NCBI GenBank assembly: GCA_964404795.1
Contig: CAYOLI010000003.1
Span: forward strand, 31,621-95,620
Length of the DNA: 64,000 bases
Source of the DNA: an uncultured Candidatus Saccharibacteria bacterium
Lineage (GTDB): Bacteria > Patescibacteriota > Saccharimonadia > Saccharimonadales > 2-12-FULL-41-12
Reading direction: 5' to 3'
The translations under genes were made by a program, and so were the position numbers. The notes under the pieces were generated by a model. The model made no database searches and was not told where the DNA came from. It saw only the letters and a list, made by a program, of their open reading frames with translations. Positions 8,666 to 47,576 of this stretch are shown here, in pieces. Position 1 is the first letter of the stretch. Each line of letters opens with the position of its first letter.

Positions 8666-9034
8666 TTAGTTATTCAGTTTAGATTTTACTAGCTCGGCAA
8701 CCTGCCTAGGAGTCATATCCGCCTTTAGTATAAAAGCGCTGACGCCAAGATTTTCCATTGATTTTGGAATTTCTTGCTCCCCCATGTTTGTTAAAACGAT
8801 TACTTTTATATCTTTTCCCCACGGTGTCTCGCGTAGTTTCTGTAGCATTTCGTCCCCAGACATTTCGGGCATCATCAAGTCCAACAGAATAATATCGGGT
8901 TGCATTTGCTCTACAAGCTCTAGGCCAAACTTACCGTTTTCCGCGGTTTCGACATCGAACCCTTCGGTTTCAAATTTGATGCGATACATTTGTGCAATCG
9001 CGTGGTCGTCTTCAATTATGGCTATTTTAGGCAT
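8666..9034 (-). CDS. Stand-alone response-regulator receiver (CheY-like) protein
   Basis: 122 aa with IIEDD, the phospho-acceptor context DIILLDLMMP, and VIVLTN...K. No output domain. Confidence 0.85.
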   Translation of the reverse strand: MPKIAIIEDDHAIAQMYRIKFETEGFDVETAENGKFGLELVEQMQPDIILLDLMMPEMSGDEMLQKLRETPWGKDIKVIVLTNMGEQEIPKSMENLGVSAFILKADMTPRQVAELVKSKLNN

Positions 9035-9166: not shown

Positions 9167-9943
9167 ATGGAAATAGAACGATCCATAGAATCTAGTAATG
9201 ACTTGATTACTCCCAACCCAACTGGCGAGGAAGCTTTAATCGAACGATCATCTGACAGTATTCGCAGAAAAATCATAGGCGGGGCAATTGTCGGTTTGGC
9301 TACCGCAGCGCTATTTGTTGAACAAAGCCCACTAAACGAATCTGTTAGGATTCCGCCCGCAGCCGCAGTATTCCGAAGTACGGGTAGCGAACTAAAAACA
9401 GGAGGAGTCGTGGGCGCCCTTACTCTTGGAATTGAAATTCCTACAAGTATACTAGTATCCGCAGGTCTAAACTACGAAAGAGACAGGATAAGAAAAGTGG
9501 TCAATAGGTTTAAGGGAGCTGATACTGGCTATAGTAAAAAAGATGAGACTCCAAAAGATTATGGCTTAAGAGATATTGTGACGGATACCAGTATAGCTTT
9601 CGGTTTGGGTCCATCAGTTCTCGTTGCCAAACGACATATTCAAAATCCAGAAAGAACATTTAAATCTAATGTAAAAACGGGAGTAAAAGCGTCTGTTGCT
9701 GTTTCTGCTCTTGCTGCTAGTATAGGAGGTATTTCTGCAGTATTGTTGAAGCAAGCAGATAACCTGGGTGCGTTTAAGAAACCTGCAGAGTATTTTGTAG
9801 ACTACGCTACTGACTGGAAATTTTGGATTGGTGTTGTGGGGAGCATACAGGTATTGTCGTATGCTAGGAATAAGCTACGAGGTAAACGGCGTAGAATGTC
9901 GTCAAAAGATGAAATTTTGGCAGAAAGGGACAATCGTGAGTAG
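9167..9943 (+). CDS. Hypothetical polytopic membrane protein (first gene of a three-gene overlapping operon)
   Basis: 258-aa ORF with about five hydrophobic segments (e.g. IIGGAIVGLATAALFV, GVKASVAVSALAASIGGISAVLL) and a basic tail. No family recognised. Confidence 0.55.
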   Translation: MEIERSIESSNDLITPNPTGEEALIERSSDSIRRKIIGGAIVGLATAALFVEQSPLNESVRIPPAAAVFRSTGSELKTGGVVGALTLGIEIPTSILVSAGLNYERDRIRKVVNRFKGADTGYSKKDETPKDYGLRDIVTDTSIAFGLGPSVLVAKRHIQNPERTFKSNVKTGVKASVAVSALAASIGGISAVLLKQADNLGAFKKPAEYFVDYATDWKFWIGVVGSIQVLSYARNKLRGKRRRMSSKDEILAERDNRE

Positions 9944-10739
9944 ATACAATCAGGACAAAGTAGAAGCAATGTTACCTCCAGTAAGTGACGAGCATTTTGG
10001 GTTCAATAATGAAGCACGGTTTTGGGTTGGGCGAGTTGCTACCAAGTCAGTAGTAGATGCCCCAGGTATACACGATAGTTTATTGCAGTTTCGCGGGAAT
10101 GTTTATGTCCGGGAATGCGGTTTTTTGCCAGAGAATAGCTTAGATAGTAAGGGACGTGAGAGTGATTCGGATGATCTTCGGTCATTACTTTTTTCTGCTG
10201 TTGAAAAATACACTGACGATGGTGAAACTGGAGCAAGGGTTGTGGGCTCTTCTAGGATTATTATGAAAGACTCTGATCAAATCTTGCCTATCGAGAACTA
10301 TTTTCCTGAAGTATTTAAAAAATTCCCGGCCGAGGGTAATATTTCTTCTGAAATTTCGAGATATATTGCCAGACATCCAAACAAGTTTGTTCAAGGATTA
10401 GTATCTTTGGCGTTAGTGCGAGCCATGTTTAATGTATGCATTCAAGAAGGCATAGAAAATGCATACGCAATGCTAGAAGAGAAACCGTTAAACAAACTTA
10501 GGCGGACGGGCATAGAAGCTAATGATATTGGCTCTTCAAAATATATTGCAGAACTAAAAGGTGTAATCCAACCTGTTGTTTTTCGTCCCTTTGAACTAGT
10601 TAATACTCTGTATGCCGAGTCGGCTGACGTAGACCAGCCCCTGACAGCTTCACAAATTTTCTTCCAGTTCGATCAAAACAAAGACGGGCATGGGTTTTAT
10701 AATGAAGATTTGATGAGAAAAGATCATGATATCTCGTAA
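9936..10739 (+). CDS. LuxI/FeeM-fold GNAT N-acyl (amino acid/homoserine-lactone-type) synthase-like protein
   Basis: FRGNVYVRECGFLPENSLDSKGRESDSDDLRS, EISRYIARHP and LEEKPLNKLRRTGIEANDIG follow the autoinducer-synthase/N-acyl amino acid synthase pattern. The ORF opens at 9828, but the GTG at 9936 follows an AAAGGGA RBS and overlaps the upstream stop. Confidence 0.6.
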   Translation: MSRYNQDKVEAMLPPVSDEHFGFNNEARFWVGRVATKSVVDAPGIHDSLLQFRGNVYVRECGFLPENSLDSKGRESDSDDLRSLLFSAVEKYTDDGETGARVVGSSRIIMKDSDQILPIENYFPEVFKKFPAEGNISSEISRYIARHPNKFVQGLVSLALVRAMFNVCIQEGIENAYAMLEEKPLNKLRRTGIEANDIGSSKYIAELKGVIQPVVFRPFELVNTLYAESADVDQPLTASQIFFQFDQNKDGHGFYNEDLMRKDHDIS

Positions 10740-11610
10740 ATTTGAACGTAATCTAGGTTTTATGACTGTTGAGGAACAGGAAAAAATAAATTCCTCTAGC
10801 ATCGCTATTGCTGGTGTAGGAGGGGATGGCGGTCTTCTTGCAATTCAGATGGCAAGATTGGGTATACAAAGATTTAACTTGGCCGATCCTGATGATTTTG
10901 AAGAGGAGAACACAAACAGACAAGCGGTTTGTACACAGACAAGTATCGGCAAGAATAAAGCTGAGGTAGTAGGAGAGTACTTGCAGGATATCAACTCAGA
11001 AATAGAGATCTCAGTATTTGATACAGGTATAAATCAAGACAATGTTGGACCTTTTGTCGAGGGTTGTGATCTAGTTATAGATGAAACGGAATTTACTATG
11101 CATAAATTAGGCATTATGCTTGCAAGAGAATCTAGGGCTAGAGAAATTCCTCAGATGACAGCGCTTAATATTGGCTTTGGTGCAATAGTTACTACTTACC
11201 ACCCAACGAGCAGGTTTACACTTGAGAAGCAACTTGGGTTTAATAAAGAAGACGATATTTCTGAAGTTGAAAAAAGCCAAGTTAAACTGGATAGATGGCT
11301 ACCGTATGTCCCGTCTTACGGTGACTTATCCGTTTTAGGCAAAGTATCGACAGGCAAAGTGTCTGCTCCGTCCATTGCCCCTGGCGTCGCACTAGCAGCA
11401 GGTGTTGGGGCAACGCAAGCTACATTAAACCTCTTAAGTGAGTCTAATAACAATAGGCCAAAGCCCATCTACGCTCCGAGAGCAATCGTTGTGGATGCTG
11501 TGGAGCAAGTTTTTAAACAAGTCAGAATGTCTCGACTCAGTCACTATAGGCATTTAAGTAAATTGGTTTTAAAAAATACTTTAGGTATGAATCCAAAAGC
11601 AGATTATTAG
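10726..11610 (+). CDS. ThiF/MoeB/HesA-family (E1-like) adenylyltransferase
   Basis: Nucleotide-binding loop IAIAGVGGDGG, then ADPDDFEEENTNRQ (the NxxRQ motif) and DLVIDETE. No Cys-rich or rhodanese extension. Overlaps the upstream gene by 14 nt. Confidence 0.75.
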   Translation: MISRKFERNLGFMTVEEQEKINSSSIAIAGVGGDGGLLAIQMARLGIQRFNLADPDDFEEENTNRQAVCTQTSIGKNKAEVVGEYLQDINSEIEISVFDTGINQDNVGPFVEGCDLVIDETEFTMHKLGIMLARESRAREIPQMTALNIGFGAIVTTYHPTSRFTLEKQLGFNKEDDISEVEKSQVKLDRWLPYVPSYGDLSVLGKVSTGKVSAPSIAPGVALAAGVGATQATLNLLSESNNNRPKPIYAPRAIVVDAVEQVFKQVRMSRLSHYRHLSKLVLKNTLGMNPKADY

Positions 11611-11649: not shown

Positions 11650-13830
11650 ATGCTTGATGGATATGTAGCAACCAGTTTTATTCTTGCTATATTATTTTTT
11701 ACGATCGGAGCGATCGTTTTTGTCAGGAACCCGAACAAAAAAACTAATAGAACATATCTAATCTTCAGTATTTTCGTTGGAATATGGCTGGTCGCGAATT
11801 TTATTGCTAGTTCGACCAAAGTTGATACGCAGGTTGCGCTAATAGCAAATCGTATAGTTTTTGTATTTGGCGGGCTTGCGGTCACCACGATGTTTGTCTT
11901 CTTTCTTTACTTAACTAAAGCCAAGCTAACTTTGAGTATGAAGATATTAGTATTTTTCTCGCTCTTTACAAGCTTGATAGGATTGTCTCCGTTAATAGTT
12001 AAGGATGTTTTTTTAAAGGGGGATACATATGGTATTAATTTTGGCCCACTGTCTAGCTTGTATTTTCTTTTATTAACCATTGTTTTTGCAGCCACCATTA
12101 TAAATCTCGTTGTCGGAGTTACTAGTAAAGAGTCAGAGAGAAAAGAGCCATTTAAAATAATATTGATTGGCATTACTATTACTTTCATCGGTATATTTAT
12201 TACTAACGTTGCACTTCCGGTCGGCTTCAATTATTTTGGGTTAGCTAATATAGGGTCGTATTTTGCCATCTTTGTTGTGGCCAGTATGGCATATGCAATC
12301 ATTAAGCACAGATTATTCGATATAAAATTTACCATAGCTAGGATTATGACATATGGTCTCTTGGTGTCGACGTTAAGTGCCATCTATGCGGTTACTGTAT
12401 TTGTTTTTGCCAGCAAACTTTTGGACGCAGAATCTTTGTTCGCTCAGCAGGTAATACCAATTACTACGGCAATATTCCTAGTATTTACCGCTCCGCTATT
12501 AAGAAAACTATTCGATAAAATTACAAACAGGATTTTTTATCAGGATGCTTATGACCCCCAAGTATTTCTAGATGAATTTAATAAAGCGCTTCTTAATAAT
12601 ATCGAATTACCAATTTTATTAAGACATTCTACCACTGTGATTCAAGAAAATTTAAAAAGTCAGTTTTGTGTGGTCGTTGTCAACGAGGACGGTCCCGAGC
12701 AAACCAGGATAATCGGTACTGAACGGTTGCGTTTGTCTGATTCGGAGAAAACATTTCTACGACAGGATTTAGCTAACTCTAGAGAACGCGTAATTGCTGT
12801 CGACGAAAGTCAAGATCTACATCCAAGACTCAGCCGTATACTGAAGTCAAAAAATATTGCAGTGGCTGTTCGATTGGATGCAAGCTATCGTACTGGAGAA
12901 GACTCGCTCGCGTATCTGATGATGGGACCAAAAAGTAGTGGTAGTTTTTATAATAAAAATGATCTGAAAATTATCGAGATAATCTCGGATGAGTTAGTAA
13001 TTGCCATTCAGAACGCCCTACGATTTGAGGAGATCCAGGGCTTTGCTGCTACCTTGCAAGAGAGAGTCAATGACGCCACGGCTAGCATTAAGCGTACAAA
13101 CGAAAAATTAAAAGAAATCGACGAAACAAAAGATGAGTTTATTAGCATGGCCTCTCATCAACTCAGAACGCCGCTTACGTCAGTCAAGGGGTACCTTAGC
13201 ATGGTTTTAGAAGGGGATGTGGGTGAGATTAGCGAAAAACAGCAAAAACTGCTTGGACAGGCGTTTGTGAGCTCACAGCGTATGGTTTATCTGATTGCCG
13301 ATTTGTTAAATGTTTCTCGCCTTAAAACCGGCAAGTTTGTTATTACGCCTGCGCCGTCCGATCTCGCCGAGATGGTACAGGGCGAAATAGACCAGTTATT
13401 AGAGGTGGCAAAGAGTAAGCGGATCAAAATTAATTACAAAAAGCCAAAAGAGTTTCCACTGCTTATGATAGACGAGACAAAAACCCGTCAGGTTATCATG
13501 AACTTCATAGACAATGCCATATACTACACACCATCATCTGGCGAGGTAGACGTATCTGTTAAAGAAGATAAAAACCATGTTTATTTTACTGTCAAAGATA
13601 ACGGTATTGGCGTACCAAAAGAGGATCAAAAACATTTATTTACTAAGTTTTACAGGGGTTCTAATGCTAGAAAAACTCGACCCGATGGAACGGGGTTAGG
13701 GCTTTTTATGGCAAAAAGAGTCATTATTGCACAAGAAGGCACGGTCTTATTTGAGAGTCGAGAGGGCAAAGGTAGTACCTTTGGCTTTTCTCTAAACAAG
13801 TCAAAACTAGCGGTTAATCAGGAAAATTAA
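11650..13830 (+). CDS. Sensor histidine kinase with a multi-TM N-terminal domain
   Basis: About 7-8 N-terminal hydrophobic helices. H-box SMASHQLRTPLTSVKGY, N-box FIDNAIYYTP, G1 VKDNGIGVP, G2 GTGLGLFMAKR. Confidence 0.9.
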   Translation: MLDGYVATSFILAILFFTIGAIVFVRNPNKKTNRTYLIFSIFVGIWLVANFIASSTKVDTQVALIANRIVFVFGGLAVTTMFVFFLYLTKAKLTLSMKILVFFSLFTSLIGLSPLIVKDVFLKGDTYGINFGPLSSLYFLLLTIVFAATIINLVVGVTSKESERKEPFKIILIGITITFIGIFITNVALPVGFNYFGLANIGSYFAIFVVASMAYAIIKHRLFDIKFTIARIMTYGLLVSTLSAIYAVTVFVFASKLLDAESLFAQQVIPITTAIFLVFTAPLLRKLFDKITNRIFYQDAYDPQVFLDEFNKALLNNIELPILLRHSTTVIQENLKSQFCVVVVNEDGPEQTRIIGTERLRLSDSEKTFLRQDLANSRERVIAVDESQDLHPRLSRILKSKNIAVAVRLDASYRTGEDSLAYLMMGPKSSGSFYNKNDLKIIEIISDELVIAIQNALRFEEIQGFAATLQERVNDATASIKRTNEKLKEIDETKDEFISMASHQLRTPLTSVKGYLSMVLEGDVGEISEKQQKLLGQAFVSSQRMVYLIADLLNVSRLKTGKFVITPAPSDLAEMVQGEIDQLLEVAKSKRIKINYKKPKEFPLLMIDETKTRQVIMNFIDNAIYYTPSSGEVDVSVKEDKNHVYFTVKDNGIGVPKEDQKHLFTKFYRGSNARKTRPDGTGLGLFMAKRVIIAQEGTVLFESREGKGSTFGFSLNKSKLAVNQEN

Positions 13831-13836
13831 CTCTTT

Positions 13837-16440
13837 TTAACGCAGTTTTACTGCATCGTCCTCTTTTAACATGTAGCTGTCTTGTTCAACGGTTTTCGAT
13901 GTTAAATTGGTTTTTTCTACAACTGATCCACCGAGTAGCTTGTTTTTGTCCGATTTCGTTTTACGTTTTCTGGTGCGTTTTCTTTTTCTTGGGGTAGTGG
14001 TTGGTGCCATTTCGGGCTTTAGCTCTAGCTTTCTCTCTATAAACTCGGGGTTGGTTGCTGGTTTGTCGGCTACAACAGCAGTATTAGTTGGTTTTTTTGC
14101 TTTTTGCTTGGTCGCAGTTGGCTTTATTTTTGACGTATCCAGATTATGCCTAGCGTTGATATATTCCTCCACCTCTGTTACAGATAGTGCATATTTTTTT
14201 CGACTCTGATCTATGATGGTTTCCGAATAATCTTGCCCATATTCTTCAAGATCGGTTGTAATGGCTGAGAAGGCCTGTGCCTTTTCTCCGTTAATGGTCA
14301 TACTAATTACAAAACTGCGGTTGTGCATGTGTACTAGATCGTGCTCGCTAAATTTGGGTTCGAAGTATTTAAGCATGATCCTGGCATCATCAGCACTGGT
14401 TCTAAAGGATATAATCGACCCTACGTTGCCAAAAACAGCATCTTTTACACTTTGCATCATCTGGGCGGTGTATTGGTTGGCCACCGTAAGGTTAAGGCCA
14501 TATTTCCTCGCTTCGGACAAAATGGTTGCAAAAGAATCGGTTGCAAAATTTTGGAACTCGTCTACATATAGGTAAAAAGGTATACGTTCATTAGGTGGTA
14601 TGTCTGCACGGCTCATGGCAGCCATCTGTATTTTGGTTACCATCAGTGCTCCTAGAAGTCCAGCATTATCTTCGCCTATAAGACCACGAGAGAGGTTAAC
14701 AATTAGTATTTTTTGGTAGTCCATAATCTCACGAATGTTAAAACTGCCTCTCGGTTGGCCAATGATGTTTCTAACCAGTGGGTTGGCGGTAAAAGCCCCA
14801 ATTTTGTTCAGAACTGGGGCAACCGCTTCGGCCGCAAATTTGTCGTTGTAGCTGGCAAATTCGACAGTCCAGAAGTTTTGTACAACTGGGTCGTTAACGT
14901 ACGTTAGCACCTCTTCTCTAAACTTTTTATCGGTTAAGATGCGGGTGATATCCAGCATTGTGGCCTCTGGGTAATCGAGCAGTGCCAGTATGCTGTAGCG
15001 CAAAATGTACTCTAGTCGTGGCCCCCAGGAGTCAAACATTCTTTTTAATACCCCAATCAGTTCAGAGCAGGCATGAGTTCGCAATTTGGGGTCAGTTACT
15101 TCTAAAGGGTTAAACCCTATCGGATAATCGCTGTCTGCCGGATTAAAATAGATAACGTCGTTTACTCTGTTGGCTGGAATACGTTTAAGTACATTTAGTG
15201 CATAATCTCCGTGAGGATCGATTACGGCAAAGCCCTGTCCGTCTACAATGTCCGAAAGGGTTAACAGCTCTAATAAACCCGACTTACCAGCGCCAGTTTG
15301 GCCAATAATGTACAGATGACGACCTCTGTCAGATCTTGGTAGACCAAATAAGGTGTTATAGCCCCTAAAGTTGGTGTGCGCCATCATGCTAACTTCTGAG
15401 GATTTTGTAACTGGCAGATTAGCTGGTGGCTCGGCAGTTGTAGCGTTTGCCCAGAGGATATTTGGGGTTTCTACGTTAGTATGGGGCAGATGGTATAAAC
15501 TGGCTAGCTCTTCTATATTAAGAGTCATACTTTTTGCCCCTAATAATCTGTTTTGATAAGATTTAACACTGCTTAATCCCGTTTGCACCTTGCTAGAGCT
15601 AAAACCGTTTAAATAGGTCGAATTGAACTGTTTAAACCCTGCTACTATGGACTGCAAGCGCATTTGTGCCTGCGAATCGGTAGAATTACCAAGATAGATA
15701 ATCCTAACCGCTGCTGAGTACGCCAGTTTGTGGCTCTTCTCCTCCGATGCGGAGGCCCGTGCAGATTCATGTTCGACCAACTTAGGTGTTTGTGACTGCT
15801 TTTGCTCGGGCGGAGCGCTTAGAGCACCCAGTAGCCCTACGTATTGGCTGGAGTTAATTCCTCCACTACCGCGAATGGACTGCGAATAGCGCTCACTCTT
15901 CTTGTACCAGCCGTTTTTGGCTGGTTGGACTACCACCTGTATCCAGGCACTTTCATCTGGGGCAAACTGAGCTAAACTGGCGGTGATTCCAGCCAGCGGA
16001 TCTACCTCAAAACTAGGAAATGTCTTGATTGGTAAGGGGTCTGGCGCAATTAGCTTTAACTCGGTCGAGATGGTGTGTTTGCCACTATTTGGTAGCCGAG
16101 AGTAGTCGTCTACCTCTGATATCTCTACATTTGGGTATTGGGCATATATTTGGTCTTGAACGTATTGTTTTAGTCGTGTAGGGCACCAGACAAAGAAGTT
16201 AATTTGACCACTTATAGTAGCAATTTCGAAACTAATCCTATCGTGCACGGCAGAGGTAAAGAGTCCACTAGATTGCTTGGTAAGCAGTCCATGTATAGCC
16301 GCAAGCATCTGTTCGGCTGCCAACTCCTTTTTCTCGTTATTACGGGGTACTTTCAACAGTAAAACAGAGGTATCTTCCGTTATCTGGCCTTGCTTTTTCT
16401 TAAATAACATTGTATGCATTATATCACTATGCTTATGCAA
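13837..16440 (-). CDS. VirD4/TraG/TraD-like (type IV coupling protein-like) P-loop ATPase with a large N-terminal domain and a basic tail
   Basis: Walker A IIGQTGAGKSG, FAVIDPHGDY, Walker B-like FYLYVDEFQNFAT and LNLTVANQY. C-terminal tail is rich in K/R (PRKRKRTRKRKTK). A TATAAT sits 7 nt before the third ATG (16410), so a leaderless start there is possible. Confidence 0.65.
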   Translation of the reverse strand: MHKHSDIMHTMLFKKKQGQITEDTSVLLLKVPRNNEKKELAAEQMLAAIHGLLTKQSSGLFTSAVHDRISFEIATISGQINFFVWCPTRLKQYVQDQIYAQYPNVEISEVDDYSRLPNSGKHTISTELKLIAPDPLPIKTFPSFEVDPLAGITASLAQFAPDESAWIQVVVQPAKNGWYKKSERYSQSIRGSGGINSSQYVGLLGALSAPPEQKQSQTPKLVEHESARASASEEKSHKLAYSAAVRIIYLGNSTDSQAQMRLQSIVAGFKQFNSTYLNGFSSSKVQTGLSSVKSYQNRLLGAKSMTLNIEELASLYHLPHTNVETPNILWANATTAEPPANLPVTKSSEVSMMAHTNFRGYNTLFGLPRSDRGRHLYIIGQTGAGKSGLLELLTLSDIVDGQGFAVIDPHGDYALNVLKRIPANRVNDVIYFNPADSDYPIGFNPLEVTDPKLRTHACSELIGVLKRMFDSWGPRLEYILRYSILALLDYPEATMLDITRILTDKKFREEVLTYVNDPVVQNFWTVEFASYNDKFAAEAVAPVLNKIGAFTANPLVRNIIGQPRGSFNIREIMDYQKILIVNLSRGLIGEDNAGLLGALMVTKIQMAAMSRADIPPNERIPFYLYVDEFQNFATDSFATILSEARKYGLNLTVANQYTAQMMQSVKDAVFGNVGSIISFRTSADDARIMLKYFEPKFSEHDLVHMHNRSFVISMTINGEKAQAFSAITTDLEEYGQDYSETIIDQSRKKYALSVTEVEEYINARHNLDTSKIKPTATKQKAKKPTNTAVVADKPATNPEFIERKLELKPEMAPTTTPRKRKRTRKRKTKSDKNKLLGGSVVEKTNLTSKTVEQDSYMLKEDDAVKLR

Positions 16441-16529: not shown

Positions 16530-16970
16530 CATCGTTTCAAGTGGTGGGGTGGAGCTCACAAGCAGATTCGATAGCAAATTAACAATTTATAAAAACAAGC
16601 TAGATAGTCATGGGTTTTTAATCCTGGTTGAGATTCACTCAATTCTTTGAATTGCCAGACCCACACCTCTACAGGGTTTAACCCTGTAAACAACTCCCAC
16701 AAGGTTAAACCCTGTAGAAGGGGGTGGGGTGTTTGGAGTTTGCGGAATTGAGTGAAGCTCCTAGTTGATAAAAAATCCTAATAAACCCGACTACTATTAA
16801 ACAACACTCTCACTGATACAGAGTACCTTTATAACTGTGGACGATGCGTTTTGCTAGTAATAATTTGCTAGTAGCACGCATCGCCCAGAAGGGTCTTTTG
16901 TACTCAGTGAACTGATCACTCACTGTTTTAGGCAATCATGCCATTTAGACACCTTGAAGGAGGTGGAGAA
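16530..16970 (+). promoter_or_regulatory. About 440-nt structured 5' leader or independent ncRNA upstream of the secreted-protein gene
   Basis: Nested long-range pairings: 16632-16645 with 16745-16758, and 16655-16678 with 16708-16736. These compete with local hairpins at 16671-16687 and 16701-16717. There is also a hairpin at 16839-16886 and a terminator-like stem CAGTGA/TCACTG plus TTTT at 16905-16929, just before the RBS. Confidence 0.5.
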
Positions 16971-18176
16971 ATGATCATTTGCAAGAACAGGATCAAGGTC
17001 GCCTCCTGGGCGATCACCCTTATCATCACGACGCTTGCGTTTGTGATGATGGCTAACACGGCTTCAGCAAATAGTCGAGGTCAGTGTAACGTGTCACCTG
17101 GCAACACGGTGACTTCCACCAGTGAATGGCTCGGCGTCCTCCGCAAGGAAGGCGTTACCGGACAGGTAGGACGAGTATTCAACTCCGCAGGATATCGGTC
17201 TTATGACCAAAATCTTCGGCAGTGGATGAGTCAACGTGTCATTCGTACGAAGTCCCACCGTTCATTCCGAGCAGTGGATTACGGTTGTCGGGGCGGCAAC
17301 CTCTTTTCGGTAGGAATTCGTTCCTACGGGAAGGGCAAGCAGATCTTTGTGGTTATGCCTTTGAAATACTCAAAGGCGGACTTTCGCACTCGAAAGAGTG
17401 GAGGTTACACCAAAAAGGTCGCTATTTCGGTGAAGGTGATTGGTCTTTCTGATTGCGGAAATCCCGTGATTGGAACCACCACTATCATCGTTTGGGTCAA
17501 GGGTAGTAAACCCAGCAGTCCAAGCAAGCCGAAGCCGACCCCCAAGCCGACTCCAGCTCCGACCCCCGAGGTTGTGGTGAGTTGTCCTACCGGTACGAAC
17601 TGGAATGGAAGTCAGTGCGTTGGCAATGTAAACCAGGCCGAGCAGGACTGCCGTGCAACTGTTGGTGGCACATGGAATGGAGACATGTGTGTCAATACTC
17701 AGACCAACAACAATTGTGGCAACACGAATGTTGGGTCCGGTAACAATGCATCTGGGGACAACTGCAACACGACGAACATTTGTTCGAATGTTAACAGCCC
17801 TGCAGGTGTCGTCAATTGCACGGTCCCGCCTCAGGCGAAGTCAATCAAAATTACCTCATCGGTGACTTTGAATGATATCCCTGTAGGGAAGAACTCAGGA
17901 CCATTTACCCTTACGGTGAATGCTTCTGAGAGTGGCGGTAGTGTTACTGTTGACCCCGGGATTGGTGCTGTCAGCAAGTGTGACAGCACGACGCCTGTTG
18001 CTTCGGCAACATTTTCATCGCTCCCTGCTGGGAATTCGGAGTTGTGCGTTATTTTTTACGCACCCTCTGACCCGGCAAGGCCTACAAGTATGACGATCTC
18101 TATGGTCGCCACCCTCGGCAGTTCCAGCGACATCAAGTCGCAAACATTCGCAATCACCTACCCGGTTCGTCCGTAG
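16971..18176 (+). CDS. Secreted Cys-rich protein with a Pro/Thr/Lys linker; compositionally foreign (GC-rich)
   Basis: Strong RBS GAAGGAGGTGGAGAA before the ATG at 16971 (the ORF opens at 16938). Signal peptide MIICKNRIKVASWAITLIITTLAFVMMANTASA. Linker SKPSSPSKPKPTPKPTPAPTPE. Cys-rich NxC repeats. Clearly more GC-rich than its neighbours. Confidence 0.75.
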   Translation: MIICKNRIKVASWAITLIITTLAFVMMANTASANSRGQCNVSPGNTVTSTSEWLGVLRKEGVTGQVGRVFNSAGYRSYDQNLRQWMSQRVIRTKSHRSFRAVDYGCRGGNLFSVGIRSYGKGKQIFVVMPLKYSKADFRTRKSGGYTKKVAISVKVIGLSDCGNPVIGTTTIIVWVKGSKPSSPSKPKPTPKPTPAPTPEVVVSCPTGTNWNGSQCVGNVNQAEQDCRATVGGTWNGDMCVNTQTNNNCGNTNVGSGNNASGDNCNTTNICSNVNSPAGVVNCTVPPQAKSIKITSSVTLNDIPVGKNSGPFTLTVNASESGGSVTVDPGIGAVSKCDSTTPVASATFSSLPAGNSELCVIFYAPSDPARPTSMTISMVATLGSSSDIKSQTFAITYPVRP

Positions 18177-18244: not shown

Positions 18245-18314
18245 GGGTAACTGGTCACTTATATTTTTTGTTGAGCATATGCTCCGAAAAATCCCTAAGT
18301 GACCAGTTTTACCC
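18245..18314. repeat. Long inverted repeat enclosing a 12-bp perfect palindrome
   Basis: GGGTAACTGGTCACTTA ... TAAGTGACCAGTTTTACCC are 17-nt arms with a 2-nt bulge. They flank GAGCATATGCTC. The repeat lies between the GC-rich gene and the LPXTG gene. Confidence 0.7.
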
Positions 18315-18422: not shown

Positions 18423-19370
18423 ATGAAAAACCTTAAGAAATTTGCTTCTGCTACAACAGTTGCTGTTGTTGCAATCTTTGCTTCTGCTACCGTTTTTGCT
18501 GGTAGCCCGGGGCAATTGGCCGGTGGTGATAACTACTTGGCAAAAAATTTAACTAAAGGTGGCGATTACTCAAACAACGTTAGCGCTACTTGTGACGATA
18601 GCGTTCAATACAGTATGCAAATAAGCAATACTCAATTTGGCGCATTAAATAATGTAACTATGAAAGCATCTTTGCCAACAAATGGTGGCGTAAGCACTGC
18701 TGTAGTTACTACCGATTTGGGTGGTCAATCAGGCACCACTGACACTACATCAGTGACCTTGCCAGCTAACGCCAAGCAAGTTTTGGTAAACGGTTCTACC
18801 ACTTTATACGATGGTAACGGTAATGTTATAAAAACTTTACCTGACACTATTGTAAGTGGTGTCAACATTGGTACTCTTGCTGGTTCTACAACTGAGTTTG
18901 TCAACTTTAAAGTTAAAGTTGACTGTCCCAAGGAGCCCCCAGTAATTTCTACTGGAGCTTGTAAGTTGGTAAACGTAAATGTTAGCGATAACCGAAAAGT
19001 AACTGTATCAATCGATACAGTAGTAAACAATGCTACAATTGTTGGTTACAAAACTGACTTTGGTGATGGCACAGTTGCCAACACTCAGACCTCTAGCCAT
19101 GTTTATGCTAAAGACGGAACATACAAAATTGTTTCTAGCGTAAATGTAAAATATGCCGATGGTCACACCGAGTGGAAAACGGCTGATGCTTGTTCTAAGA
19201 GCGTAACGTTTACTCCTAATGAGGAGCCAGTTGTTACTCCTGTAACTCCAGCTACCCCAGAGGCATTGCCAGAGACAGGTGCTGGTAGTGTAGTTGCTCT
19301 CTTTACCGTAGTTAGTGCAGTAGCAAGTATTGCCTACTCGATTGTTAGCCGACGCTTGAGTCGTCAGTAA
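18423..19370 (+). CDS. LPXTG-anchored cell-wall surface protein with a PKD-like domain
   Basis: RBS AAGAAGGAGAAGG. Signal peptide. PKD-like DFGDGTVANTQTSSHVYAKDGTYKIV. C-terminal sorting signal LPETG, followed by a hydrophobic helix and RRLSRQ. Confidence 0.85.
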   Translation: MKNLKKFASATTVAVVAIFASATVFAGSPGQLAGGDNYLAKNLTKGGDYSNNVSATCDDSVQYSMQISNTQFGALNNVTMKASLPTNGGVSTAVVTTDLGGQSGTTDTTSVTLPANAKQVLVNGSTTLYDGNGNVIKTLPDTIVSGVNIGTLAGSTTEFVNFKVKVDCPKEPPVISTGACKLVNVNVSDNRKVTVSIDTVVNNATIVGYKTDFGDGTVANTQTSSHVYAKDGTYKIVSSVNVKYADGHTEWKTADACSKSVTFTPNEEPVVTPVTPATPEALPETGAGSVVALFTVVSAVASIAYSIVSRRLSRQ

Positions 19371-19538: not shown

Positions 19539-19604
19539 GATATCTGTTTTTGGTAAACTTTAACGGTGGAAGAGTAGGTTGGGTTTACAACTAGTATAGA
19601 TTTT

Positions 19605-19663
19605 GGCCTCATCGTGCAGGCGGTTAGGACACCGGGTTTTCATCCCGGCAATAGGGTGAGGCC
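19605..19663 (+). pseudogene. T-arm-less copy of tRNA-Glu(UUC), either a pseudo-tRNA or a tRNA-like domain
   Basis: Matches tRNA-Glu at nearly every position over the first 52 nt (five differences, all within the D-arm). It then lacks GTTCGATTCCCCT and continues directly with TGAGGCC, a perfect complement of its own 5' GGCCTCA. No CCA. About 20 nt of the upstream flank is also duplicated. Confidence 0.75.
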
Positions 19664-19766
19664 CGCCAGTGGCGGGGCGCAAGGGAGCCAACTCTTGCAA
19701 ACTGGTTTGCAAAGATGTTGCGTTTGCGCTCGCCGAAGGTGAGTCGGTTCAGAATCGAACCCTCAT
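19661..19766 (+). ncRNA. Candidate structured RNA, homologous to the core of the 184-nt units at 1645-2012
   Basis: Hairpins at 19661-19678, 19693-19715 and 19729-19743, plus 19740-19765. They align with hairpins in the tRNA-Arg-linked units, with compensatory base-pair changes and shared bulges. Confidence 0.6.
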
Positions 19767-19788: not shown

Positions 19789-19863
19789 GGCCTCATCGTC
19801 TAACGGTTAGGACACCGGGTTTTCATCCCGGCAATAGGGGTTCGATTCCCCTTGAGGTCACCA
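19789..19863 (+). tRNA. tRNA-Glu (anticodon TTC)
   Basis: GGCCTCATCGTCTAACGGTTAGGACACCGGGTTTTCATCCCGGCAATAGGGGTTCGATTCCCCTTGAGGTCACCA. Anticodon loop TTTTCAT. Possible promoter TTCAGA-N17-TACAAT at 19748-19776. Confidence 0.9.
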
Positions 19864-29489: not shown

Positions 29490-29882
29490 TGGTGGAGCTG
29501 GCGGGTACTACCCCCGCGTCCATCGGATTTACTGTGACTAGCCGTCTTCGTACATAGTTTATTTAAAAAAGTTTCTTTACTATTTCGTTAATAAAAATAA
29601 ACAAAAACTAACAAGATAGTGCACTCAATATTTTTTAAGAGCAATCATTTGAGAGACGATACTCCGTAGCCAGTAGATATGACACACAAACTAATTCTTT
29701 CTGGCGAGAATTAGGTGTGGCTGTAGTGATTAAGCTACAGCTGGTGCGAAAGCTGGCATGGTAAACATGCTAGCTAATCGCTGAGTAAATGATTTTGCAT
29801 TTATTCGGTTTATCTATAACGCTGATAAGCGGTACGCAAGCTAATCTGTAAATGTCCAATGTCGAGCTTAAAATTCAGCCCC
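29490..29882 (-). ncRNA. ssrA: tmRNA (SsrA)
   Basis: 5' end is GGGGCTGAATTTTAAGCTCGAC. 3' end is GGACGCGGGGGTAGTACCCGCCAGCTCCACCA, a tRNA-Ala-like acceptor with CCA. Internal tag frame at 29798-29730: GCA... AKSFTQRLASMFTMPAFAPAVA, then TAA. Confidence 0.9.
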
Positions 29883-45644: not shown

Positions 45645-46616
45645 ATGATGATTGTCAAAAGAGTAGCAATTTATTTGCTAGTTAGTTTATTTTCATTAAC
45701 AATTGCATCGGTGGCTGTGGCACAAGAGAAAGTGCCCGGTAGTGGTCTAAGGATTTCACCAACTCGTACAGAGTTGACACTAGATAGAGGGAAGTCAGCG
45801 TCAATTAAGATCACACTAAAAAACGTATCAGGTGGTGACGTTATTGCCAAGGCAGACGTAAATGATTTTGAAGCAGAGGGAGAAACAGGGGATCCGAAAT
45901 TACTAGTTAACCAGGGCGATAAAAGAACTCCAACCAGCGTAGCACCATTTTTGTCCGATGTTAAAGACGTCTCCTTGAAGACAGATGAATCTAAAGAAAT
46001 AAGCATCCCCGTTAACATTCCATCAAACACTGCTTCTGGGGCCTATTACGGCGTAGTTCGTTATTCTGCAATTCCTGCCACGGGCCAGAATGAGCCAGGC
46101 AAGGTTTCGTTAACGGCCAGTGTTGCTACACTAGTACTTATCGAAGTACCAGGCAATATCACTCAGCAAATTCAGCTCAGTGATATTATTGTTTACCAAA
46201 GGAACAAAGAGGCAACATTTTTTTCAAAACCACCGACAGATATAGGAATTAGGATAAAAAACACCGGCAATAGTTTCTCTAAGCCATTTGGTCGCGTAGT
46301 TATCACTAACAGTTTTACAAATAAAGAAGTTTATTCATACGAGATGAATAATACTACACCCAGGAACAATGTACTCCCAGGAACAACGCGTGTATTTAAA
46401 GATGCATTAAAAAACGTTAGTAAGCCAGGTCGATACACAATTACTGCTGGAATATCCCATGGTAGCGGTGGAGAGGTAATTACTAAAAGAGTATCGTTTT
46501 GGTATATTCCTGGATGGTTGATGTTCGTGTTGGTAGTTATCGTTATTGGACTACTGGTTTCTGTATTTTATCTGGTTAGGAAACTCAAGAAGAACAACAA
46601 AAGAATTAAACGATAG
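45645..46616 (+). CDS. Ig-like, chaperone-like cell-surface protein with a C-terminal TM anchor (DUF916/DUF3324- or PapD-like architecture)
   Basis: Signal peptide. LRISPTRTELTLDRGKSASIKITLKNVSGGDV. A second beta domain GIRIKNTGNSFSKPFGRVVI...LPGTTRVF...PGRYTITAGI. C-terminal TM helix WLMFVLVVIVIGLLVSVFYL plus a KKNNKRIKR tail. Confidence 0.5.
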   Translation: MMIVKRVAIYLLVSLFSLTIASVAVAQEKVPGSGLRISPTRTELTLDRGKSASIKITLKNVSGGDVIAKADVNDFEAEGETGDPKLLVNQGDKRTPTSVAPFLSDVKDVSLKTDESKEISIPVNIPSNTASGAYYGVVRYSAIPATGQNEPGKVSLTASVATLVLIEVPGNITQQIQLSDIIVYQRNKEATFFSKPPTDIGIRIKNTGNSFSKPFGRVVITNSFTNKEVYSYEMNNTTPRNNVLPGTTRVFKDALKNVSKPGRYTITAGISHGSGGEVITKRVSFWYIPGWLMFVLVVIVIGLLVSVFYLVRKLKKNNKRIKR

Positions 46617-46676
46617 ATAGGCCTCTTACGAAAAGGTGAGGTGGATATACTTTAAACAAAATAGCGAGGTTTTAGG

Positions 46677-47576
46677 TTGTACAGCCCAACACGCGTTACT
46701 TTAAAGAGAGTTAACTTGCTAATAGTTGTAGTGACTGTTTTTTATATTCTTATTTTTTCTTTTTTGCCAACTAATGCAGAAACAAGTAAATCGGGGTCGA
46801 TTGGTTTAGAGGGCACCATTCCGGGTGGTGTGCCAACGCAAGCTGCTAGTATTACCTTTCCAACCAATGGGGCAACAATCAATAACCTGCCAATAACGGT
46901 TATGGGTATTTGTCCAAAAGGTACAGTAGTTAAGTTATACAAAAATAATGTTTTTACTGGGTCTGCGCAATGTAGTAATGGTAGTTTTAGCATTCAGACC
47001 GATTTGTTTACTGGATCCAACGAGCTTGTTGCGAGAGTTTATAATGAGCTGGATCAAGCTGGTCCGGACTCCAATATAGTTACGGTAAATTATCCGCTAT
47101 CACAATTTGGAGTAGTAAACCGAGTATCGCTAACATCAACTTTTGCTAAGAGGGGCGCAAATCCTGGAGAACTACTCTCTTGGCCAATAACCTTAAGTGG
47201 CGGAATTGGCCCATATGCCATATCTGTTGACTGGGGCGATGGTACAAAGCAGGATTTGATTAGCCAACAGTTCCCTGGTGCATTAAATATTAGCCACAAG
47301 TACGAGAAGTCAGGGACTTACGTTGTTATTGTTCGGGCTTCGGATAAAAATGGTGAGATTGCTTTTTTGCAGCTAATTGGTGTGGCCAATGGTCCAGTTA
47401 CCCAAGATGATGGCAAGAAAGATGGTGCCGGTACAACTACAATTGTAAAAACTAGGATTTTGTGGCTTCCTGCATTAATCGCTCTTCCGTTAATACTTGT
47501 TGCTTTTTGGTTGGGTAGAAAACACGAACTTGACACAATTCATAAACGACTTGATAGAGGTGATAGCGACTTTTGA
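46677..47576 (+). CDS. Surface protein with Ig-like and PKD-like domains and a C-terminal TM anchor
   Basis: N-terminal signal/anchor. PKD-like ISVDWGDGTKQDL...HKYEKSGTYVVIVRASD. C-terminal TM helix ILWLPALIALPLILVAFWL. Confidence 0.6.
   Translation: MYSPTRVTLKRVNLLIVVVTVFYILIFSFLPTNAETSKSGSIGLEGTIPGGVPTQAASITFPTNGATINNLPITVMGICPKGTVVKLYKNNVFTGSAQCSNGSFSIQTDLFTGSNELVARVYNELDQAGPDSNIVTVNYPLSQFGVVNRVSLTSTFAKRGANPGELLSWPITLSGGIGPYAISVDWGDGTKQDLISQQFPGALNISHKYEKSGTYVVIVRASDKNGEIAFLQLIGVANGPVTQDDGKKDGAGTTTIVKTRILWLPALIALPLILVAFWLGRKHELDTIHKRLDRGDSDF

Follow-up and report, generated by a model that had tools for sequence, protein, structure and literature searches.

A GC-rich, mosaic gene for a predicted two-module surface protein in a conserved chromosomal slot of Saccharibacteria

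Composition of the gene

Within a stretch of 64,000 nucleotides from an uncultured Candidatus Saccharibacteria bacterium (contig CAYOLI010000003.1, positions 31,621 to 95,620; hereafter, the window), we studied a gene for a secreted, Cys-rich protein of 401 amino acids (the family gene), together with its 5' leader and with the next gene downstream, which encodes a second secreted protein bearing a cell wall sorting signal (the partner; Table 1). The family gene is strongly GC-rich in an AT-rich neighbourhood. Comparison with relatives indicated that this GC-richness is a maintained property of a circulating pool of gene cassettes and not the scar of a recent capture from an actinobacterium.

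The original prediction had singled out this gene as much richer in GC than its surroundings and unusual in its G/C-ending codons, and the computed values agree. The 1-kb bin 17001-18000 has the highest GC content of the window (52.0%; window mean, 41.3%). The coding sequence (CDS) has a GC content of 0.517-0.519 and a GC content at third codon positions (GC3) of 0.554-0.565, against means of 0.413 and 0.36 (sd 0.03-0.04) for the 46-53 other window genes that served as background, none of which matches its GC3. Amino acid composition is ruled out as the cause, since the protein sequence combined with the codon usage of the window predicts a GC3 of only 0.366 (0.5625 observed; z = 8.5). The same synonymous-codon test gave a sd of 1.16 and a maximum z of 4.2 for the other genes, so that the family gene lies outside the normal range of the window. 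The elevation is uniform over the whole CDS and does not extend beyond it: the intergenic sequences on either side have 35-42% GC. Several codons are strongly over-represented relative to the background, namely AAG (share of 0.82 vs 0.32), ATC (0.57 vs 0.17), CTC (0.38 vs 0.06) and ACG (0.35 vs 0.14). ACC is raised as well, NNY boxes favour C-ending codons, and ATA, AGA, TTA and CTA are unused.

An assembly chimera is ruled out by 23 contigs, from several samples and assemblers, that carry the gene for the identical protein in the same flanks. An alternative in-frame ATG at 16938 found no support from homologues, and no antisense open reading frame (ORF) of more than 54 amino acids overlaps the gene. 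Paralogues or silent donor cassettes are absent from the window, in which a profile hidden Markov model (HMM) of the family matched only this ORF and blastn of the gene (word size 7, E≤10) found no match in the remainder.

Domain architecture and protein family

An AlphaFold model built on an alignment of 26 sequences bears out the layout proposed from the sequence alone: a signal peptide, a P/T/K linker passing into a Cys-rich block, and a C-terminal beta-rich domain. It also resolves a confident N-terminal domain (NTD) in front of the linker. Modelled alone, the NTD reached a predicted local distance difference test score (pLDDT) of 90 and a predicted template modelling score of 0.86. It belongs to type N0, the commonest in the family, and contains the invariant residues Cys39, Cys106, Cys162 and Asn164. 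The matches obtained with Foldseek for the whole model (the CLIPPER adhesin domain 9ifr, RbmA, SrpA, Psa/Myf/Agg fimbrial subunits and an Fsx1 domain) were assigned to the immunoglobulin (Ig)-like C-terminal domain (CTD) because the NTD alone had no significant PDB match. The protein ends in ...ITYPVRP and has no LPXTG sorting motif.

As anticipated, no known family was recognised: the protein had no match in Pfam (no family above the gathering threshold), NCBIfam or the PDB sequences. A profile search of 1.84 billion cluster representatives nevertheless retrieved 278 family clusters (50% identity) at E≤1e-3, nearly all with proteins of 360-480 amino acids and the same layout, with a median of 15 Cys per protein. 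Alternative CTDs in the family weakly match Big_9, Cadherin_5 and CARDB (member P0008 matches Big_9 at 6.7e-6). A very strict CTD seed, 'DPGIGAVSxC', recovered one GTDB locus and three metagenome loci. We found no homologues on annotated plasmids or phages, and the literature searched yielded no account of the family or of anomalous GC content in surface genes of Saccharibacteria. Judging from their sequences, these are apparently Sec-secreted, disulfide-rich, two-module proteins with predicted surface exposure, so far only in Saccharibacteria-type genomes. This supports, as a predicted type, the earlier description of a secreted Cys-rich protein involved in surface or host interaction.

A conserved chromosomal slot

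All 13 independent Saccharibacteria-type loci examined, including those of the two most divergent members that could be placed, carried the family gene in the same syntenic slot. The housekeeping proteins of the related loci were 43-80% identical to those of the window. By the yardstick that the original prediction itself had set, such syntenic presence in relatives speaks against a recent acquisition. On its upstream side, the slot is bordered by a histidine kinase gene and sometimes by genes for a TraD-like ATPase or for CLIPPER/PKD proteins. On its downstream side come a secreted protein of 220-330 amino acids, usually a tRNA-Glu(UUC) gene, and then the series pyk-pgk-tpi-x-uvrD-G5/transglycosylase-rsmA. 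The tRNA-Glu gene follows the module in 10 of the 12 related loci, and the whole neighbourhood is rich in secreted PKD and CLIPPER proteins. In the window, a truncated pseudo-tRNA-Glu lies 184 bp 5' of the intact one, at the right edge of the variable module. It retains the upstream region, the acceptor 5' arm, the D arm and the anticodon arm at ~95% identity, lacks the T-arm, and has the appearance of a scar left by recombination or integration. The genes scanned around the locus include no integrase.

Mosaicism and allele replacement

The 130 full-length representatives of the family that we compared show at least eight NTD types and two major CTD types, joined in 26 different pairings (N0+C1 in the window protein). 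The types of the two domains vary independently of each other (Mantel rho -0.06), and neither follows the genomes that carry them. The closest relative of the window by housekeeping genes (locus L007; 66-80% identity) has an NTD about 70-72% identical to that of the window protein and an unrelated CTD, whereas the more distant L014, L015 and L009 share the CTD (65, 74 and 49% identity, respectively) and have unrelated NTDs. Across eight genomes, domain sharing was uncorrelated with housekeeping identity (Spearman rho 0.22 and -0.05, n.s.). The window and L019 have in common a 1.5-kb segment of 74% nucleotide identity that spans the CTD, the spacer and the partner gene, while their HisK proteins are only 50% identical.

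One replacement could be seen directly. L012 and L019 are 93-98% identical over ~10 kb of upstream flank and 97.7% identical through the first 68 nt of the gene, after which the gene body is unalignable. Similarity returns 58 nt past the stop codon, is lost a second time across the partner gene's 5' half and is regained within the 3' half. Lateral exchange, which the original prediction had also invoked, does shape this gene, as both this replacement and the genome-incongruent domains attest. From the sequences, the leader and signal peptide would serve as the conserved left-hand anchor of cassette replacement, and the linker would be a preferred crossover zone between domain cassettes, letting heads reassort. 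Saccharibacteria are naturally competent (PMC10633639), which offers a plausible route for such replacement.

The partner takes part in this exchange. Its identity pattern is incongruent with that of the housekeeping genes. Its orthologues end in sorting signals of the LPKTG or LVNTG type, with MPETG in L015 and no recognisable motif in L009; LVNTG, present in many lineages, may be a variant sortase motif. CTD similarity co-varies with that of the N-terminal half of the partner (Mantel rho 0.83, p 2e-4) and not with that of its C-terminal half (rho -0.06). Linkage alone would not give this asymmetry, given that the NTD lies about as far from the CTD and yet is uncoupled from it (rho -0.06). 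The partner may be a sortase-anchored stalk, with the Ig-like CTD docking on its distal half.

GC-richness across the family

In each of the 13 loci, the family gene surpassed the other genes in GC3, the margin being +0.08 to +0.35 (Wilcoxon p 2.4e-4). The GC content of the gene ranged from 0.52 to 0.61, with the window copy as the lowest, in host loci of 0.41-0.56, and its GC3, from 0.56 to 0.80, did not depend on that of the host genome (slope 0.23, r 0.34, n.s.). The signature of the family is a scarcity of A-ending codons, with a frequency of A at third positions (A3) of 0.04-0.17. In host genomes of 53-56% GC, the gene is near-native (GC3 difference of +0.08 to +0.15) and up to two other genes of the locus have equal or higher GC3. 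As the gene stays above its host even in GC-rich genomes, it is GC-richness itself that is conserved, not codon rarity. In genome pairs sharing a domain, codon identity at conserved residues was 0.35-0.49, against 0.32-0.38 at random, for housekeeping and family genes. Synonymous sites are thus saturated between lineages, so the GC pattern cannot be the un-ameliorated remnant of a single old transfer.

The partner gene has a different composition. Its GC3 tracks that of the host genome (slope 0.85, r 0.92, p 2e-4) and is below it in every locus, with a frequency of T at third positions (T3) of 0.37-0.53; the window copy has a GC3 of 0.31 and a T3 of 0.45. This T3 bias is opposite to that of the family gene only ~250 bp away (orthologues, e.g., L014:11367-12338 and L021:1588-2355). 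In three low-GC relatives, secreted CLIPPER/DUF11 proteins that the family HMM does not match are also encoded by strongly GC-rich genes (L012:3763-5100, L019:3934-5274 and L015:3512-4420; GC 0.60-0.64, GC3 0.70-0.76), so the trait may extend there to more than one class of secreted protein.

Leader, ribosome-binding and 3' elements

The family gene is preceded by a perfect Shine-Dalgarno (SD) sequence, rare among its neighbours as had been noticed by eye: GGAGG precedes 2 of the 53 window ORFs, whose starts are longest-ORF guesses. AGGAGG or GGAGG is also found in homologous loci. Further upstream, 83 nt 5' of the start codon within a spacer of 530 nt, the leader contains a hairpin unique within the window (dG -30.3 kcal/mol, z -7.2; z -5.1 for the whole leader). 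The inner stem needs G.U pairs, which makes this an RNA structure and not a DNA palindrome. Folding each locus separately revealed the same layout with other arm sequences in eight loci including the window, with 20-26 bp, z of -6 to -10 and a distance of 61-157 nt to the start. Apart from tRNA matches, an Rfam scan of the leader detected no family at gathering or E≤1 thresholds. The hairpin could be a new cis-regulatory RNA, acting as an mRNA stabiliser or as a site of RNase III size.

In 6 of 13 loci, the motif CCGACTAC (AACC[GA]A[CT]TA[CT]) is found 27-55 nt upstream of the hairpin. Its core is also 5' of the gene in L022, a locus with no identified hairpin, for a total of 7 of 13. With 26 chance-level occurrences of the degenerate pattern in the window, it is a lead only, weak evidence for a possible promoter or operator element. 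The spacer holds a second hairpin (16668-16718), built from a motif of 21 nt, ACYTCTAMAGGGTTWAACCCT, which can be found within the TraD-like gene as well. An exact 15-nt repeat, CTAATAAACCCGACT, is common to the spacer and that gene. The hairpin of the leader, the perfect SD and a terminator-like palindrome after the stop codon suggest a transcript under dedicated post-transcriptional control.

Table 1. Coordinates of the family gene, its domains and the associated elements (window positions, unless a related locus is named)
Feature	Position	Strand	Description
Family gene CDS	16971-18176	+	ATG at 16971; product of 401 amino acids
Signal peptide	16971..17069	+	Residues 1-33; model helix 8-25; predicted cleavage between ASA and NS (by eye)
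NTD, type N0	17076..17510	+	Residues 36-180; confident alpha+beta fold in model
Linker	17511..17834	+	Residues 181-288; P/T/K, then Cys/Asn-rich low complexity; pLDDT below 50-70
CTD, type C1, and stop	17835..18176	+	Residues 289-401; beta-sandwich, pLDDT above 90
Partner gene	18423..19370	+	Secreted, Pfam PKD_4; LPETG, transmembrane helix and basic tail RRLSRQ
SD sequence AGGAGG	16958..16963	+	7 nt before ATG
Leader hairpin	16835..16888	+	23 bp; outer stem, 1-nt bulge, inner stem, 4-nt loop
Upstream motif CCGACTAC	16787..16794	+	Before the hairpin
ACYTCTAMAGGGTTWAACCCT/CTAATAAACCCGACT hairpin and repeat sites	16665-16718, 15098-15118, 15270-15284, 16778-16792		Spacer and TraD-like gene
Terminator-like palindrome	18249..18308	+	After stop; 34-nt arms, 79% complementary
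Truncated pseudo-tRNA-Glu	19583..19664	+	Sub-threshold tRNA match, 23.8 bits
tRNA-Glu(UUC)	19789..19863	+	Conserved right-hand landmark of the module
Hairpin, L007	9869-9927		Same layout
Hairpin, L009	9883-9940		Same layout
Hairpin, L012	9866-9913		Same layout
Hairpin, L014	9792-9844		Same layout
Hairpin, L015	9033-9084		Same layout
Hairpin, L020	9812-9862		Same layout
Hairpin, L021	122-170		Same layout

A proposed role and the maintenance of GC-richness

We think it likely that the gene encodes a secreted, Cys-rich, two-module surface protein of adhesin-like type, with a variable head and held at the cell surface by docking, whose cassettes circulate among Saccharibacteria and keep their GC-richness as a family trait. 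The downstream LPXTG protein would be a sortase-anchored stalk, on whose distal domain the secreted protein would dock through its Ig-like CTD. The NTD, the proposed variable head, would then be displayed outward to bind a ligand, probably on the host bacterium. New combinations of head and dock would arise by homologous recombination after natural transformation, with crossovers at three places: the conserved leader and signal peptide, the low-complexity linker, and the partner gene or tRNA-Glu region. For the GC-richness, we tentatively prefer selection on the transcript, which might combine a GC-rich, A3-poor body, the leader hairpin and the perfect SD for controlled stability or expression, acting together with allele turnover; hairpin, SD and palindrome form the circumstantial basis for this choice. 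A broader proposal, that a phylum-wide pool of interchangeable heads (of novel structure) and docks (for a co-evolving stalk) sets which host can be attached while transcript selection with the leader hairpin keeps the composition, a rare case of selected nucleotide composition, goes further than we would readily follow and seems rather unlikely. Its extreme variant, a coding sequence tuned for expression in or by a high-GC host, deserves next to no credence.

Several points weigh against our interpretation. Covariation, the ground for docking of the CTD on the partner, could also result from tight linkage combined with a recombination hotspot in the linker. A clean replacement event was seen just once, in the single close genome pair at hand (L012/L019). 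No near-identical alleles were found across distant hosts that would point to ongoing transfer into the window lineage. The population of the window appears to carry one allele only, since the same 401-aa gene is present on 16 of 16 contigs with an identical TraD-like neighbour. The NTD has neither a PDB fold match (best E 0.067) nor a sequence relative, and the Foldseek matches of the CTD are to generic Ig-like or adhesin folds only (E 2e-4 to 1e-3). The protein libraries carry no taxonomy, which is known for the inspected contexts only, so that an actinobacterial member among the other clusters is conceivable. The function of the family protein is something that we infer rather than demonstrate. 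Selection on mRNA composition is likewise a deduction, in a window that holds no ribosomal-protein or EF-Tu genes for an expression-linked comparison of codons.

Alternative explanations

The original prediction proposed acquisition from a high-GC actinobacterial host, taken here as a recent transfer not yet ameliorated. The confinement of the atypical composition to the CDS would fit, as would the conjugation-type ATPase and the tRNA with its partial duplicate that flank the module, and cultivated Saccharibacteria do live on Actinobacteria (PMC10633639). However, synteny is kept in each of the 13 diverged Saccharibacteria-type loci, every copy is GC-richer than its host genome (the window copy having the lowest GC content of the family), synonymous sites are saturated between lineages, and there are no plasmid or phage homologues. 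The contexts inspected have 41-56% GC, none of them high-GC, and the GC content of the family (0.52-0.61) is below that of typical Actinomyces or Schaalia genomes. Together, these observations make recent host transfer very improbable. A serious rival is turnover without any selection on composition, in which alleles would be re-imported from a reservoir of higher-GC Saccharibacteria and decay toward the GC of their hosts, the window copy being an older resident. It is well served by the replacement seen in L012/L019, the clear mosaicism and incongruence, the documented natural competence (PMC10633639), the near-native composition of the gene in hosts of 53-56% GC and the lowest GC3 of the window copy. 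Yet the gene exceeds its host in GC3 even in the GC-richest genomes, and the co-exchanged partner tracks host GC3 whereas the family gene does not. The canonical CTD is somewhat closer among low-GC hosts (74% in L015, 74% at nucleotide level in L019) than between the window and GC-richer ones (57-65%); L009, at 49%, is the exception to this similarity trend. CTD pairs of low-GC hosts are synonymously saturated yet still GC-rich, and near-identical alleles across distant hosts were not seen. We thus regard turnover alone as unlikely, though as an alternative to be taken seriously.

GC-biased gene conversion (gBGC) at a recombination hotspot could raise GC3 where recombination is as abundant as it is here, and the effect is confined to third positions and to the CDS. 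But the partner gene, whose 5' half co-recombines with the CTD, has a GC3 below that of its host in every locus, and the AT-rich spacers inside the exchanged segment show no GC elevation. The GC3 effect, +0.2 to +0.35, is also larger than expected from bacterial gBGC, which we hold to be improbable as the cause. Hardly better placed is translational selection for the optimal codons of a very highly expressed gene. The perfect SD, the avoidance of ATA, AGA, TTA and CTA and the C-ending preference in NNY boxes suit it, while the ATP-synthase and glycolytic genes of the window have an ordinary GC3 (0.33-0.39), the partner, probably an abundant surface protein, has the opposite T3 bias, and the same G/C preference recurs across hosts of widely differing background usage. 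Finally, the linker is rich in AAY codons, and diversity-generating retroelements (DGRs) are common in bacteria of the Candidate Phyla Radiation (CPR), so that the Asn-codon-rich Cys linker might be thought a DGR variable region. No reverse transcriptase was found among the eight locus genes scanned with Pfam, however, and the linker is disordered in the model instead of forming a C-type-lectin scaffold. The window contains no template-repeat-like copy of any part of the gene in its 64 kb, which rules out a DGR target there; as a general explanation, a DGR has practically nothing to recommend it.

Comparison with known systems

O-antigen and capsule loci and the mosaic pneumococcal genes of pspA/pspC type are surface-antigen loci in which hypervariable alleles are replaced between conserved flanks. 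With near-identical flanks around unrelated central alleles, and alleles incongruent with the genomes, the locus of the family gene displays both hallmarks of such hypervariable antigen loci, and mosaic surface-antigen loci are probably its closest analogues. Shared features are a fixed slot between conserved genes, unrelated alleles in near-identical genomes, incongruence of allele and genome trees, a variable part of lasting atypical GC, and natural transformability of the organisms. Unlike O-antigen and capsule loci, the exchanged unit here comprises one protein gene and half of the adjacent one, not a biosynthetic cluster. It is also GC-rich in low-GC genomes, the opposite direction from O-antigen loci, with a composition independent of host GC across the phylum, and recombination shuffles two protein domains independently. 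Three traits are unusual: host-independent GC-richness, free reassortment of head and dock alongside covariation with an anchored partner, and the structural conservation of the leader hairpin.

The neighbourhood of PKD and CLIPPER proteins, the LPXTG partner and the Ig-like CTD also recall the sortase-anchored Ig-like adhesins and stalks of Gram-positive bacteria (PKD, CLIPPER/DUF11, Big). Unlike them, the family protein has neither a sorting signal nor a Pfam domain, its NTD is without PDB match and its linker is Cys-rich; its anchoring would be indirect, by docking. Polymorphic toxin and contact-dependent inhibition (CDI) cassettes resemble the module in that a modular secreted protein exchanges its 3' module together with the start of the downstream gene. 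In the family, by contrast, the NTD is variable too, the C-terminal module is Ig-like and not a toxin, and the downstream gene encodes a secreted wall-anchored protein instead of a cytoplasmic immunity protein. A polymorphic toxin cassette is thus ruled out by the variable NTD (at least eight types), the Ig-like CTD and the secreted LPXTG neighbour. With a foreign gene or genomic island, the gene shares atypical GC, GC3 and codons and a position near a partly duplicated tRNA and next to a TraD-like ATPase, but it is syntenic in all relatives examined, all orthologues are atypical, and the anomaly is that of a single CDS.

A strong GC3 anomaly is usually read as recent foreign DNA. Here it is conserved and host-independent in a syntenic family, a pattern that calls for sustained selection on composition or for a circulating pool of genes that is self-contained. 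Transposon sequencing (Tn-seq) shows that epibiotic growth requires adhesins, of which few have been identified (PMC10633639). Among possible determinants of how CPR epibionts such as Saccharibacteria attach and which hosts they use, this locus is a concrete and genetically testable candidate: it is a two-gene module whose parts are exchanged between strains, and Saccharibacteria are now transformable, so allele swaps are feasible. The analysis further adds an unannotated protein family of 278 clusters, an NTD whose fold has no counterpart in the PDB, and a candidate RNA element of the 5' leader.

Neighbouring genes and other features of the window

Divergent from the family gene lies a gene (13837-16440, minus strand) for an 867-aa protein combining DUF8128 with a TrwB/TraD-like ATPase of the type IV coupling-protein type. 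After the family gene, it is the gene of the window that deviates most in GC3 (z 4.2); its GC content rises locally to 0.54 at 15700-16000, and its product is 71-80% conserved in L007 and L015. The type IV secretion system of S. epibionticum has no recognisable coupling protein (Wang et al. 2023, PMC10633639), to which this orphan ATPase could be relevant. Further upstream, 9828-11610 (plus strand) encodes a FeeM-like N-acyl amino acid synthase (a sub-threshold Pfam match) and a ThiF-family enzyme, between a response regulator and a histidine kinase with seven transmembrane helices (adjoining genes, 8666-9034 on the minus strand and 11650-13830 on the plus strand). The pairing of ThiF and HisK is kept in L012, L019 and L027, and these genes could form a small-molecule signalling cassette.

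On the other side of the module, a run of six genes (41623-47576, plus strand) encodes Thr/Ala/Ser/Gly-rich proteins with N-terminal hydrophobic or signal segments. The GC content at second codon positions reaches 0.57 in this run, none of its genes is GC3-rich, and it is probably another surface or pilus-like cluster. The window also contains a full-length tmRNA gene (29490-29882, minus strand; Rfam RF00023, 79 bits).

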